DNA from: Candidatus Aenigmatarchaeota archaeon
Lineage (GTDB): Archaea; Aenigmatarchaeota; Aenigmatarchaeia; PWEA01; JACQIF01
Length of the DNA: 64,000 nucleotides
NCBI GenBank assembly: GCA_016432325.1
Contig: CP066684.1
Coordinates: 1 to 64,000 of the forward strand
Reading direction: 5' to 3'
Below are positions 24,714-52,621 of this stretch, piece by piece (positions within the stretch are counted from its first letter, which is position 1; every line of letters begins with the position of its first letter). Both the position numbers and the translations under genes were made by a program. The notes beneath the pieces are model-generated. The model saw only the letters and a list, made by a program, of their open reading frames with translations, ran no database searches and was not told where the DNA came from.

Positions 24714-24798
24714 GGCGGTGCACGAGAAGCTTCGCTTCTCGGCATATGCCGAAAGCACGGCTTTCCGTGCAGCCTCTTGGAAAGACGCGCTTTCCAAA
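24714..24798. repeat. Branched palindromic element plus adjacent TTGGAAAG/CTTTCCAA hairpin
   Basis: GCACG-[CGAGAAGC/GCTTCTCG]-[GAAAGC/GCTTTC]-CGTGC; homologous to the insertion in polB. Confidence 0.75.
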
Positions 24799-24818: not shown

Positions 24819-24932
24819 TGGCGGGCCCGGTGGGATTCGAACCCACGGCGCTCCGGTTCCACCTTGCGGAAGATTGCTATCTTCCATTAGCCACTAAGAG
24901 CCGGATGCTCTACCAAACTGAGCTACGAGCCC
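24819..24932 (-). tRNA. tRNA-Lys(CTT) with 37-nt intron at 37/38 (24858-24894)
   Basis: Full cloverleaf after intron removal; TCCGG-CTCTTA|A-CCGGA; encoded CCA. Confidence 0.9.
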
Positions 24933-24935
24933 TGT

Positions 24936-25037
24936 TGGCGCCGCGATCGGGATTTGAACCCGAGTCAGAGCTGTGACAGAGCTCTATGCTTAGCCCAGTG
25001 TTTTCGAACACATGATAGGCCACTACACCATCGCGGC
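24936..25037 (-). tRNA. tRNA-Asp(GTC) with 26-nt D-loop intron at about 21/22 (24990-25015)
   Basis: GAGCT-CTGTCAC-AGCTC arm; BHB-like GGCC:GGCT helix with bulges TA|T and AA|G; encoded CCA. Confidence 0.9.
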
Positions 25038-25094: not shown

Positions 25095-25282
25095 CACTAT
25101 CGTTGCGCGCTCCTCCACTTTTTGTGGAGAAGACTGATTGCTTCGTAGCACAGTTAAAACTAGAGCGAGATATCGAACTCATGCTGAACGGTGAGCTTAC
25201 CAAACTATCCAACCCCGGGGCCTCGATGACTATCAAAGTGCTGGAATTTGCATTCCAACATTACGGTCCGATGACCATAAGT

Positions 25283-25401
25283 GCTGACAGCGTCCTGACT
25301 TTCCCGTTGCATGCGCAACAGTACACGCCATATCGCTGAAGGGCTTAACTTCCAGGTTCGAAATGGAGACTGGGTGTTTCCCCTTCGCTTTGGCCGTCAG
25401 C
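25283..25401 (-). rRNA. rrf: 5S rRNA (unlinked from 16S/23S)
   Basis: 119 nt; terminal helix GCTGAC/GTCAGC; CACCC...CCATTTCGAAC...GAAGTTAAGC, GTACTG, GGGAA motifs. Confidence 0.93.
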
Positions 25402-39866: not shown

Positions 39867-42356
39867 TCAGACCTTCTTCACAAACTTTCTTATGGTTGCT
39901 TGCGTGCCCATTCCCTTTAACTCTTCTTCTGTCACGCCCAGCACTTGCAGGACGCGCATTCCTGCAGGAACTATCTGGTTGTTTATGTAGTACTCGGCGT
40001 CTGTGCGCTCGACCGACGCGTCTTCGATAGGCTCGGCTCTCTGAGATATTGAACCCTTGCCCTCTGTTATAACATATACCACAATCATGCCCGGTCCATA
40101 TGGCCGCCCGCGCTCCTTTATCTTGCGCGCGGCGACCACGTGCGGGCCTATCTGTTTGTACTCTTCCAAGCGTTTGGTCAGCTGCTCGTGAATCGTGAGC
40201 TCCTTTATATCGACTTTCTTCTTGCGCACGCGTTCTACGACGCTCTTCATGTACGCGATCGCGCCTTCCTTGTCCTTTTTCTTCAGAACGTAGACGAGCA
40301 CGTTTCGCTGCACTTCCTTCGCCAGTTCGCACCAGTCGCGTCGCACAGTTTCGAGGCCGCGTATGGTAAGCGCGCCTTTAGAGTCTATAAGCGCGTAGCG
40401 TTTCTTGGCCGTGCCGCGCTCGGAAAGCTTTGCTTTCCGGCGTGCCGAAGCGGCCTTGCCGTTTCGTGCATAGCCTGCGCCTTTGGGAATGAAGACGCCG
40501 CGCTCGTAGATTCCCTGAAGCTCGAGCTCCATTATTCCGGGCAACTTCTTGTTCATCTGCTCGATGAACTGCGCGGCTGACTTGCCGATGTCCTTGGCCT
40601 TATCTCTTTTGACGAAACACGAATCCGTGTCCGCATAGACGACGGTGAAACCGGCCTTCTCGGCCTCCCCCATCGTTAAACTAATGTAGTATCTTCCGAA
40701 GGCCGCGCTCGCTTCCGCGCATTCGTAGCAGTACCATTTCGCGCCTGTGTATGCTAACGCTCCGTAAGAGGCGTTGGCCACCATCTTCAGCGCCTGCTCC
40801 TCAAGTTTGAGGTCCTTGTACTCTTGGGAGGCAGGCTTTAGCTTTTGCAGGCGTTCCTTGACAGCGACGCGAGCCTCGATTAATCCACGAACAGCCGCGG
40901 AATAGAAACCCTGCTTCTTCTTGCAGAAGTGGCGCTTCATGCCGGGAACTTTGTATCCATCTGTTTTGCAGCAATCGCAGTCCAGCGTCTCCGGGGATAT
41001 GTTGTGCGACGCGATTATCGAAGGATACAGGGAGCGGAAGTCCATCACCGCAATCTTTTCTTGTATTCCGCCGAGAGGCTCCCTGACGAAGCCTCCCACG
41101 TATGCCGGGCGCGCCCGCCGAGCCTCTATCTCGTCGAACCTCGGCTGGTTGGGGCTTATGCGGCCTTCTGCGTGCGCGCGTCTCACCAAATGCCACTCGA
41201 CCAATTGCGAATAAGACATGCGCGAGACGTCGAAAGGCGGCTGTCCCACCACGCGCGCAATCCCAAGAACTTCCGGAAGGAATTCGTTGGCCAGGCGGAA
41301 CGTCAGCTCGGAGTCTTTCAGGTTGTATTCGGCGAACTTTCCCAGATTGCGTTCGCTTCTCCACGCCTCGACCATCTGCTCGTACGCCAGCTCTATCTTT
41401 CTGTCTCCCAGAATCTCCGCCGCGACTGCGTCGAGCGTCAAAGTTTCCGTGTCCAGATGGTATTTCAGAACGTTGTTCACCAGCGCGTAGAGGTCGAGAT
41501 GCACGCGGCCGTTGAGACGCGCTGACGAGACGCGCATGCGGCGTACGGACGTGACCTCTTCGCCGTCTCGCGAAAGCACGAGCTTCACTTTCAGTTCGTC
41601 GCACCGTTCGCGCAGCAGCGCAAAATCAAACTCGTCTCCGTTGTATGTAACGAGAACGTCGGGGTCTGCCTCGTTTATCGTTTCGATTAGTTTTTCGATC
41701 AGTTCCTTCTCGTTGGCCACGACCGTTACGTATGCGCCGTACCTAGCCTTCTTGTAAGTGAAGACGCGTTTCGTGCTGCCGTAGACAGACGCCATGATTA
41801 TGTGCGGTTTGCCTGCCTCTTCGTATGACTCAAGATCGAATGCGAGGACGCGCAGTTTGGGCGCGACTGTCTGTTTCGACTGCGTTATCTTCTCCGCCTT
41901 TACAACCACGCCGAACTTCCAGTCGCTCTTCACGTTTTCGCCGTCGACTTCATACCACGCGCCCGGCGCGAGCGAACGGTCTATCAGATACCGCCTGTAG
42001 AAATTTACCGCATACTCGTAACAGCCGTCGTGTCCTATTTCTTTGAAACTTTTTAATGCGTCGCGGAGGTTAGGCACGTCGGACGGCGTGGACGCGTACA
42101 CCTTGAGGACGTCTCTCTCTTCTGCGCCGAGCTTTCTTTTTACGACTTCGACGCGCGCCACTTTGGGTTCCTTTATCGCGGCGATTCTGTTCTGCAGTTC
42201 TTTCGTCATTGTTTTCGGAACCGCGTAGAGGTAAGGTTCGTATGTATCTAACACGCACACCGAGCGTCCGTTCGCGTCGACTCCGAACAGGCGCACCAGC
42301 GGTCTGCCGTTCTCAACCACGTAGTCGGCGTCCAGAAGGTAAAACGCGAGCTTCAT
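39867..42356 (-). CDS. polB: Family B DNA polymerase with intact exonuclease and polymerase motifs
   Basis: FDLE, YNGDEFD, YNLKD, DFRSLYPS, KMVANASYG, YADTDS, KKRY, GLETVRRDW. Confidence 0.97.
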   Translation of the reverse strand: MKLAFYLLDADYVVENGRPLVRLFGVDANGRSVCVLDTYEPYLYAVPKTMTKELQNRIAAIKEPKVARVEVVKRKLGAEERDVLKVYASTPSDVPNLRDALKSFKEIGHDGCYEYAVNFYRRYLIDRSLAPGAWYEVDGENVKSDWKFGVVVKAEKITQSKQTVAPKLRVLAFDLESYEEAGKPHIIMASVYGSTKRVFTYKKARYGAYVTVVANEKELIEKLIETINEADPDVLVTYNGDEFDFALLRERCDELKVKLVLSRDGEEVTSVRRMRVSSARLNGRVHLDLYALVNNVLKYHLDTETLTLDAVAAEILGDRKIELAYEQMVEAWRSERNLGKFAEYNLKDSELTFRLANEFLPEVLGIARVVGQPPFDVSRMSYSQLVEWHLVRRAHAEGRISPNQPRFDEIEARRARPAYVGGFVREPLGGIQEKIAVMDFRSLYPSIIASHNISPETLDCDCCKTDGYKVPGMKRHFCKKKQGFYSAAVRGLIEARVAVKERLQKLKPASQEYKDLKLEEQALKMVANASYGALAYTGAKWYCYECAEASAAFGRYYISLTMGEAEKAGFTVVYADTDSCFVKRDKAKDIGKSAAQFIEQMNKKLPGIMELELQGIYERGVFIPKGAGYARNGKAASARRKAKLSERGTAKKRYALIDSKGALTIRGLETVRRDWCELAKEVQRNVLVYVLKKKDKEGAIAYMKSVVERVRKKKVDIKELTIHEQLTKRLEEYKQIGPHVVAARKIKERGRPYGPGMIVVYVITEGKGSISQRAEPIEDASVERTDAEYYINNQIVPAGMRVLQVLGVTEEELKGMGTQATIRKFVKKV
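40413..40475. repeat. Branched palindromic element in-frame within polB
   Basis: CGGAAAGC-TTT-GCTTTCCG and CGAAGCGGC-CTT-GCCGTTTCG hairpins; aligns to 24714-24774. Confidence 0.75.
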
Positions 42357-52002: not shown

Positions 52003-52621
52003 AAAGAATCCAGAACAGTACCATCGTCGCAGTCACGCTTTCTATCGCAATCGCGTTCAGGTACGGGCCTGCTATGAAGGGTATCGGATACGGAACCGTT
52101 CCTATTACGTAATCGAAAAAGTCGTTCAGAAGGAACCACGCCAGAACGAGCGCCGCGTGCTCTCGCTTGACGCGCCCTTTCCAGACGGAGAGCAGCACGA
52201 ACGCCTCGAGAACCATTCCCACGTGAAGCGCGATAAGCGCAGCGGAGAACGACGCCTTGAGAACGAAAAACGAAGGCCAGAACAGGAGAAGAACGAACAC
52301 GGACCACACGCCGACTTTGATGAGGTAAATCGACGTCAGGAGGTTCAGCGCGGGATGCTGGTATTTCTTGAACGCGTATAGGAAAAGGAATGTTGCGAAC
52401 AGGAAGACGGCGGTAGGCGAGTCGGGCACGAGCGGCAGAAGGTAGAACGGCGTCGCCATGAACTGTTCCCAATAATAGTAGATTCCGAAGGCGACGCCGA
52501 TGAGATTGATTACGATTAGGAGAAGAGCAAGCCTCCTATCCTTTGCGAATCTTCGAACGTCCCGCGTTCGAAGTTTTCGAACCGCGTTCGAAAGCATTGC
52601 GAAAAGCCGTTTCCACTGCAT
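51980..52621 (-). CDS. DUF1405-like membrane protein with a palindromic N-terminal insertion
   Basis: FGIYYYWEQ, VPDSP, KVGVW, H.GM..EA, LNDFFDY. Confidence 0.8.
   Translation of the reverse strand: MQWKRLFAMLSNAVRKLRTRDVRRFAKDRRLALLLIVINLIGVAFGIYYYWEQFMATPFYLLPLVPDSPTAVFLFATFLFLYAFKKYQHPALNLLTSIYLIKVGVWSVFVLLLFWPSFFVLKASFSAALIALHVGMVLEAFVLLSVWKGRVKREHAALVLAWFLLNDFFDYVIGTVPYPIPFIAGPYLNAIAIESVTATMVLFWILSKRASST

Follow-up and report, generated by a model that had tools for sequence, protein, structure and literature searches.

In a 64,000-nt stretch of an Aenigmatarchaeota genome (contig CP066684.1, positions 1 to 64,000 of the forward strand; hereafter the window), we found that polB, the gene for a family-B DNA polymerase, contains a 54-nt twin-hairpin element that lies in frame, lacks stop codons and has a length divisible by three (3 × 18). 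Probably, this insert is a translated, tolerated in-frame copy of a short non-coding dispersed palindromic repeat that was gained, most simply, once. The genome, a single contig of 874,869 bp with a GC content of 55.9%, is 90% complete and 93% coding, and we take its host to be a groundwater archaeon. The original prediction, made from the letters of the window alone, had reported a palindromic element inserted in frame in DNA polymerase B; the observation was confirmed, and its interpretation is supported by the evidence presented here. Three features define the locus:

39867-42356, minus strand: polB, encoding the family-B DNA polymerase P0001 (829 amino acids (aa), intact; open reading frame (ORF) list and translation).
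40395-40406, minus strand: KKRY, the KxY motif, residues 651-654 (translation; aligns to KKKY of the KOD polymerase).
40417-40470, minus strand: the inserted twin-hairpin element, 54 nt or 18 codons, residues 630-647 (empty site in orthologues; covariance model).

P0001 matched the Pfam families PF00136 (DNA_pol_B, 4e-54) and PF03104 (exonuclease, 1e-29) and aligned with the Thermococcus KOD polymerase (1wn7) with an E-value of 1.9e-163. In an alignment of 108 sequences, the residues of Exo I-III, motifs A-C and KxY were all invariant, and the AlphaFold 2 (AF2) model derived from this alignment had a mean predicted local distance difference test score (pLDDT) of 89.6 and a predicted template modelling score (pTM) of 0.85. 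The gene is one of two family-B paralogues in the genome. The second, a 916-aa open frame at genome positions 693044-695515 (plus strand), is 34% identical and was matched in most of the relatives searched.

Aligned with the KOD polymerase, P0001 runs to ...FIPK (residue 625) opposite ...FFVTK591 and resumes at AKKRY (650) opposite KKKY, which leaves 24 residues between FIPK and AKKRY without a counterpart in KOD. Aenigmatarchaeota orthologues have a turn that is 6 residues longer at this site, and among them only this genome adds a further 18. By protein alignment across the loci of 19 related genomes, these extra residues (ARNGKAASARRKAKLSER, 630-647) sit between the palm strand ...FIPKGAGY and GTAKKRY, with the KxY motif three codons downstream. 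The estimate of 18-19 extra residues before KKRY was thereby fixed at exactly 18, the spread being accounted for by an ambiguous Y, and the element first placed at 40413-40475 proved real with the narrower limits of 40417-40470.

The aligned orthologues bore out the insertion. The 18 residues were missing in all 18 relatives from the GTDB, including G001 of the same genus, and in 118 of the 120 best homologues (of 724), which have 24-26 residues across the stretch; P0001 and P0002 are the only two with 44. At the empty site in G001 (locus L002, polB 71% identical), the sequence reads ...GGC CAT / GGA ACC GCG AAG..., and the occupied site in this genome reads ...GGC TAT, 54 nt, GGC ACG GCC AAG, so that the boundary of the insert is ambiguous by 1-2 nt. 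Because P0002, which comes from an independent assembly and is 74% identical overall, carries the same insert with 15 of its 18 residues identical (83%), the insert is not an assembly artefact.

The added segment is rich in Lys, Arg and Ala, with 7 basic and 1 acidic residues, and ends 3 residues from KxY. In the AF2 model, pLDDT fell below 50 solely at residues 629-649 and in the C-terminal tail, the rest of the protein being confident, and the insert was modelled between strands 611-622 and 654-658, where it forms a loose loop that includes a short helix. Inteins are common in archaeal PolB, and the homologues P0054 and P0068 carry the intein domains PF14528/PF14890. An intein or mini-intein would comprise at least ~130 aa with Hint-domain splicing motifs; the insert has 18 aa, and we found no intein domain in P0001.

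At the nucleic acid level, the insert DNA folded better than its shuffles on both strands (z = -3.6 and -2.6). Its two halves are:

40443-40470, minus strand: unit 1, a hairpin with the base TGC-A-CG...CG-GCA, a 7-bp variable stem and the loop AAG (sequence).
40417-40442, minus strand: unit 2, a hairpin with the base CGC-CG...CG-A-GCG, the 6-bp stem GAAAGC/GCTTTC and the loop AAA (sequence).

The stem of unit 1 has a single mismatch, A.C when read on the sense strand and G.T when read on the plus strand, and equals that of a unit at genome position 529502 but for one base. Unit 2 stands out at pair 29-56, which is UA in 17 copies of the family and CG in the polB copy, a two-sided change that gives CGC...GCG for the family's TGC...GCA.

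Copies of the family share the plan TGYACG, hairpin, CGRCATGYCG, hairpin, CGTRCA over 45-56 nt in total. Each unit of 22-28 nt is built on the base TGY-A-CG ... CG-RCA with one bulged base and an upper stem that is variable yet always paired, and doublets always consist of a plus unit followed by a minus unit (head-to-head). Some units stand alone, and others form the two ends of longer hairpin arrays (103685-103771 and 441667-441759). In both arrays the two units lie ~40 nt of further hairpins apart, resembling the terminal repeats of a longer array.

Covariation was measured on an alignment of 18 copies, with 500 shuffles and slid registers as controls. Paired bases filled 97.5% of the stem cells, and 11 of 18 pairs changed on both sides; none of the 500 shuffles or slid registers came close. 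We compared two ways of pairing the Y and R positions. Within units, pair 3-26 was CG in 8 copies, UA in 8 and UG in 2, and pair 31-54 was CG in 10, UA in 7 and UG in 1. Across the element, pair 3-54 had 5 UG and 2 unpaired cases, and pair 26-31 had 4 GU and 4 unpaired. Watson-Crick pairs thus numbered 16/18 and 17/18 in the two-hairpin fold versus 11/18 and 10/18 in the junction fold. Since the Y/R positions pair better within each half than across, the element is best described as two tandem bulged hairpins. The branched double hairpin initially proposed was therefore correct in its two hairpins and not in its branching, and three-way or four-way junction folds were rejected. G.U pairs were rare throughout the family (5 of ~316 paired cells), which fits a constraint acting on both strands, i.e. 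on DNA.

The polB insert is one of many copies. A BLAST search of the region against the whole genome returned genome position 529502 (37 nt, 89% identical, E = 1.4e-5). A strict descriptor of the doublet matched 15 times in the genome and 0 times in the reversed genome and three Markov shuffles; a strict single-unit descriptor found 38 units versus 0 in four controls. A covariance model, which the original prediction had suggested as a check, placed the insert as a significant member of a family of ~30 loci genome-wide with covarying stems. For the window itself, we avoided circularity by building a second model from 16 copies outside it and running it with filters off. This independent model recovered 40417-40470 (43.1 bits, E = 8e-10) and the following site:

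24719-24771, no strand assigned: intergenic sister copy of 53 nt whose units are separated by a 2-nt TA spacer (41.3 bits, E = 2.4e-9); an intron-containing tRNA gene has its 3′ end ~50 nt away.

The next-best match in the window had an E-value of 0.57, so that the two are the only sites found there; the noted similarity of the insert to 24714-24774 is thus significant, and the compensatory hairpin arms quoted in its favour are present in both copies. Unit 1 of the sister copy is identical to the unit at genome position 441667. Around this copy, Rfam models identified two tRNA genes with long introns (24822-24932 and 24939-25037, minus strand) and a 5S rRNA (25282-25401, minus strand). ARAGORN reported no tRNA in the whole window, although Rfam finds the two intron-containing ones. 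No tRNA was found by Rfam beside the family copies at loci L021, L022 and L034.

Most copies lie at the starts or ends of ORFs, and the polB copy is the only one deep inside a homology-confirmed gene; the ORFs around the other putatively internal copies (genome positions 441667, 823264 and 862556) had no Pfam match. On average, 24 copies were open in 5.7 of 6 reading frames; random genomic 51-mers averaged 4.0 and shuffled copies 3.3. With stops nearly absent in any frame, an insertion into a gene would rarely create one. In addition, the variable base of TGY was never a purine, so that TGA never arises there.

Identical units occupy different loci. Two copies that face opposite ways, at genome positions 515999-516050 (L021) and 851740-851791 (L034), match at every base of the element and of ~18 flanking nt, save for one loop, in which all three bases differ (GGA versus TAC). 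Differences between near-identical unit pairs across the family likewise concentrate in the loops, which indicates constraint on the stems. The copies at genome positions 703852, 784475 and 862556, and those at 653525 versus 103685, have homologous flanks and compensatory stem changes between copies; the shared flanks contain a neighbouring CACTTTT...AAAAGTG hairpin and the motif TGGGCAAAA.

In the class as a whole, the strict pattern was present in 5 of 371 genomes and 2 of 170 genera. The carriers in this genus are G000 (the present genome, 12 copies) and G001 (1 copy); those in a genus of another family are G079 (10), G045 (6) and G080 (1). The same pattern read backwards, as a control, was absent from all five carrier genomes and matched once in a single other genome. 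When 185,579 species genomes across the GTDB were scanned with one fully specified variant, 49 stretches were retrieved. All 16 Aenigmatarchaeota stretches had twin hairpins (15 by the strict rule, one nearly), compared with 0 of the 33 bacterial ones.

We then considered the constraint acting on the polB copy. At four-fold sites, the polB genes of G000 and G001 are 37% identical versus 28% expected by chance, i.e. near saturation. The insert nevertheless has 22 of its 23 stem pairs in Watson-Crick form, and under a constraint on the peptide alone, with half or more of the codons redrawn, that number would be reached with P ≤ 0.002. Given the near-saturated silent sites, there are three ways to explain this: continuing constraint on the stems as nucleic acid, their renewal through gene conversion, or an insertion more recent than the species split. 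The three residues that differ in P0002 would fit a constraint on the stems: judged from the likely codons, a change from A to V (GCT to GTT) would turn the A.C mismatch into a pair, and E to V (GAG to GTG) would yield the family's bulged T. The proposal that selection acts on nucleic acid structure and not on the peptide thus appears to hold in its first half, the stems being kept beyond what a peptide-only constraint would give, and is weakened in its second half by the 15 of 18 residues kept in P0002.

Taken together, these data suggest the following scenario. A repeat copy would have inserted into polB, most simply once, in the common ancestor of this genome and the P0002 organism, adding exactly 18 codons and no stop and landing in the turn of a palm-domain beta-hairpin before KxY. 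As part of the gene, the insert would be transcribed and then translated into a flexible surface loop, rich in Lys, Arg and Ala, that the polymerase tolerates, and it would be harmless or mildly useful. Its hairpins probably stay under constraint at the nucleic acid level or are refreshed by gene conversion. As for how the repeat moves, its units are defined by structure, target duplications are lacking and its distribution is patchy, all of which suggests an enzyme acting in trans that would recognize folded single-stranded hairpins.

Several observations weigh against this scenario. That the insert is translated is something we infer. In a maximum-likelihood (ML) tree, P0001 groups with the insert-less P0003 (92/91) and not with the insert-bearing P0002, a grouping that would need precise loss or lateral transfer of the insert. 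Pairwise identities are 74% for P0001-P0002, 69% for P0001-P0003 (the G001 type) and 67% for P0002-P0003, and the approximately unbiased (AU) test does not reject a clade of P0001 and P0002 (p = 0.12), so that a single gain is allowed. P0001 and P0003 have an unusual amino acid composition. In some relatives, several of which have incomplete genomes, nothing matched the insert-bearing polB at the orthologue level; the best matches there were ~33% identical, which is the level of the second family-B paralogue. This gene is therefore perhaps under relaxed constraint. Among 20 copies, we found no consistent target-site duplication or flanking direct repeats. Searches for the transposase families Y1 (PF01797), TnpB (PF07282) and rve (PF00665) found none in G000 and the other carriers tested, other transposase families not being searched; in controls, the PF01797 search gave matches in 6 of 14 genomes. 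Because neither a transposase nor a target-site duplication was found, the term 'mobile' draws entirely on the distribution of the repeat and the identity of its copies.

A broader reading would join these observations into one. The twin-hairpin units may constitute an undescribed, structure-defined class of mobile DNA of DPANN archaea, moved by an enzyme that reads the bulged hairpin base and shaped to be stop-free in six frames so as to live inside genes; the polB copy would then still be 'alive', with its stems maintained long after insertion, and the ML tree hints that the G001/P0003 lineage may have lost it by precise excision. We regard this combination as tentative, and somewhat doubtful as a whole.

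Other explanations of the insert are less probable. One is that the inserted element was later co-opted, either because the basic loop helps to hold the primer-template near KxY or because the hairpins act in DNA or mRNA (pausing, regulation, antisense). Its retention across a divergence of 26% of PolB residues between two lineages, with the insert better kept than the rest of the protein, would be in line with this idea, as would the survival of the 22 stem pairs despite near-saturated silent sites and the excess of basic over acidic residues (7 to 1) so close to KxY. However, the basic peptide is an automatic product of the CG/GAAA-rich arms, and other frames give similar peptides. AF2 assigns the loop no defined structure, and all other orthologues work without it. 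Gene conversion could equally explain why the stems are retained, unit 1 being nearly identical to the copy at genome position 529502. We therefore consider co-option improbable.

A slightly less likely alternative treats the 54 nt as an intron of an archaeal mRNA: the tRNA splicing endonuclease would excise it and RtcB would ligate the ends, so that the protein would have no loop. Introns with a bulge-helix-bulge (BHB) motif, in which two 3-nt bulges separated by a 4-bp helix mark the exon-intron boundaries, occur in archaeal protein genes, as in cbf5 of Crenarchaeota. Excising exactly 54 nt from polB would restore an orthologue-like sequence, and the tRNA introns of this genome do have relaxed motifs; the intron at position 37/38 of the tRNA at 24822-24932, for example, forms only 3 of its 4 central pairs, and its outer helix is weak. 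We scanned all frame-keeping pairs of boundaries within 9 nt of the ends of the insert and used random 54-nt genomic windows as the null. As a strict BHB finder missed the true tRNA introns until it was relaxed, only the relaxed scan and its null rates were used, and the geometry was checked on the 37/38 intron, which scored as a relaxed motif. No candidate was found at three stringencies, at which 11%, 27% and 27% of the random windows had at least one; the laxest setting gave 2 candidates versus a null mean of 2.5. Splicing at a BHB or relaxed BHB was thus rejected, with none within ±9 nt that gave an in-frame product at the three stringencies and no excess over chance at the laxest setting, in agreement with the original prediction, which saw no clean BHB and asked for splicing by a relaxed endonuclease to be checked.

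Further properties of the insert speak against an intron. Its two hairpins take up the whole length and leave no 3-nt bulges. A stop-free length that is a multiple of three would be needless for an intron, as would a peptide kept at 83% in P0002 versus 74% for the whole protein. Because it is in frame and free of stops, forms a floppy loop on a confidently folded enzyme and lacks a BHB motif, the insert is most likely translated and not spliced, as judged from the sequence and the AF2 model.

It is very unlikely that the hairpins were made on the spot from the target sequence, by fold-back synthesis at a break, instead of being copied from elsewhere. In the polB copy, the central box (CGGCACG...) does repeat 7 nt of the right flank, but unit 1 matches another genomic unit almost exactly, the boxes are those of the family, and 24 copies were no more similar to their own flanks than to those of other copies (permutation p = 0.19), the polB copy ranking 10th of 24. 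An origin of the insert from its target was accordingly rejected for want of excess own-flank similarity.

A second family of hairpins has also reached polB in this genus. The polymerase of G001 (P0003) lacks the 54-nt insert and has 16 other extra residues, ISEPADVRNISNRGSK, after KLPG (locus L002 on contig G001:C33, after ...NKKLPG). They are encoded by an in-frame 48-nt twin hairpin of a different, TTCGAAC-type family. With two separate inserts at different sites, polB of this genus has been hit by two hairpin families. Twin hairpins with TTCGAA palindromes are a family in the present genome as well: it holds 35 close TTCGAA pairs, versus 4-6 for the Markov controls, and also 8 clusters with at least three. 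Copies of this type are:

Window 52552-52592, no strand assigned: TTCGAA-type copy, presumably inside a DUF1405 gene.
Genome positions 69949, 393930, 641138, 830083 and others, no strand assigned: further TTCGAA-type copies.

The polB insert is of interest: it lies three residues from a polymerase motif that contacts DNA and persists across species that differ at a quarter of their PolB residues. Moreover, two questions become tractable with this repeat family: by what means small selfish DNA can persist where intergenic space is nearly lacking, and by which enzyme the repeat is moved. Its relevant features are the conserved bulged stem base, the covarying upper stem, the stop-poor frames, the lack of a Y1, TnpB or rve transposase in the searches made, and its occurrence in 2 of 170 genera.

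Archaeal BHB introns share with the insert that they are short structured segments in archaeal protein genes whose removal restores a conserved protein; the insert differs in having no BHB motif, in being in frame and stop-free, and in belonging to a mostly intergenic repeat family. Prokaryotic miniature inverted-repeat transposable elements, known as MITEs, measure 70-300 bp (PMC10969869). Like them, the element is a repeat that is small and non-autonomous, has inverted termini (TG...CA) and encodes nothing of its own. Unlike them, it is shorter and has no target-site duplication, and we found no parent insertion sequence (IS) or Y1/TnpB/rve transposase, other families not being searched.

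The unit architecture is closest in outline to that of the repetitive extragenic palindromic (REP) sequences and their BIME and REPIN arrangements, which are imperfect palindromes of 20-40 nt with a tag at the base, often in head-to-head doublets, and which include intragenic REPs (Di Nocera et al. 2013, PMC3733652). Our family likewise has imperfect palindromic units of 22-28 nt with a conserved base, forms head-to-head doublets and lies mostly at gene ends. Its base, TGY-A-CG ... CG-RCA, has neither the GTAG nor the CGTC tag, its host is archaeal, and no RAYT/Y1 transposase (PF01797) was found in the genome. The upper stems also vary far more between copies than in a typical REP family, with compensatory changes.

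The closest parallel in behaviour is with the Rickettsia palindromic elements (RPEs). RPEs (Ogata et al. 2000/2002, as summarized in PMC10969869) are short palindromic repeats dispersed in a small, reduced genome and found in frame inside unrelated genes; they are bacterial, ~100-150 bp long and fall into ten sequence families, with dozens inside genes of R. conorii. The polB element is similarly palindromic, dispersed in a small genome and in frame, and adds a peptide without destroying the protein, at the surface and in a manner predicted by AF2 to be compatible with the fold. The parallel drawn by the original prediction is therefore upheld for an in-frame, stop-free, fold-compatible insert. 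The element differs from RPEs in being 54 bp long and archaeal, in its two bulged hairpin units of 22-28 nt with the boxes TGYACG / CGRCA, and in having one copy deep inside a homology-confirmed gene, compared with the dozens of intragenic RPEs in R. conorii. We judged its distinctness from the RPE sequence families by size and host.

The element thus belongs neither to the RPEs nor to the REPs, and it is not a MITE in the usual sense, a BHB intron or an intein. In the limited collection of literature searched, we saw no archaeal gene described as carrying an in-frame palindromic repeat. Rickettsia and some other bacteria are known to have such repeats within their genes, and the polB insert looks like the archaeal counterpart of the in-gene palindromic repeats of Rickettsia.

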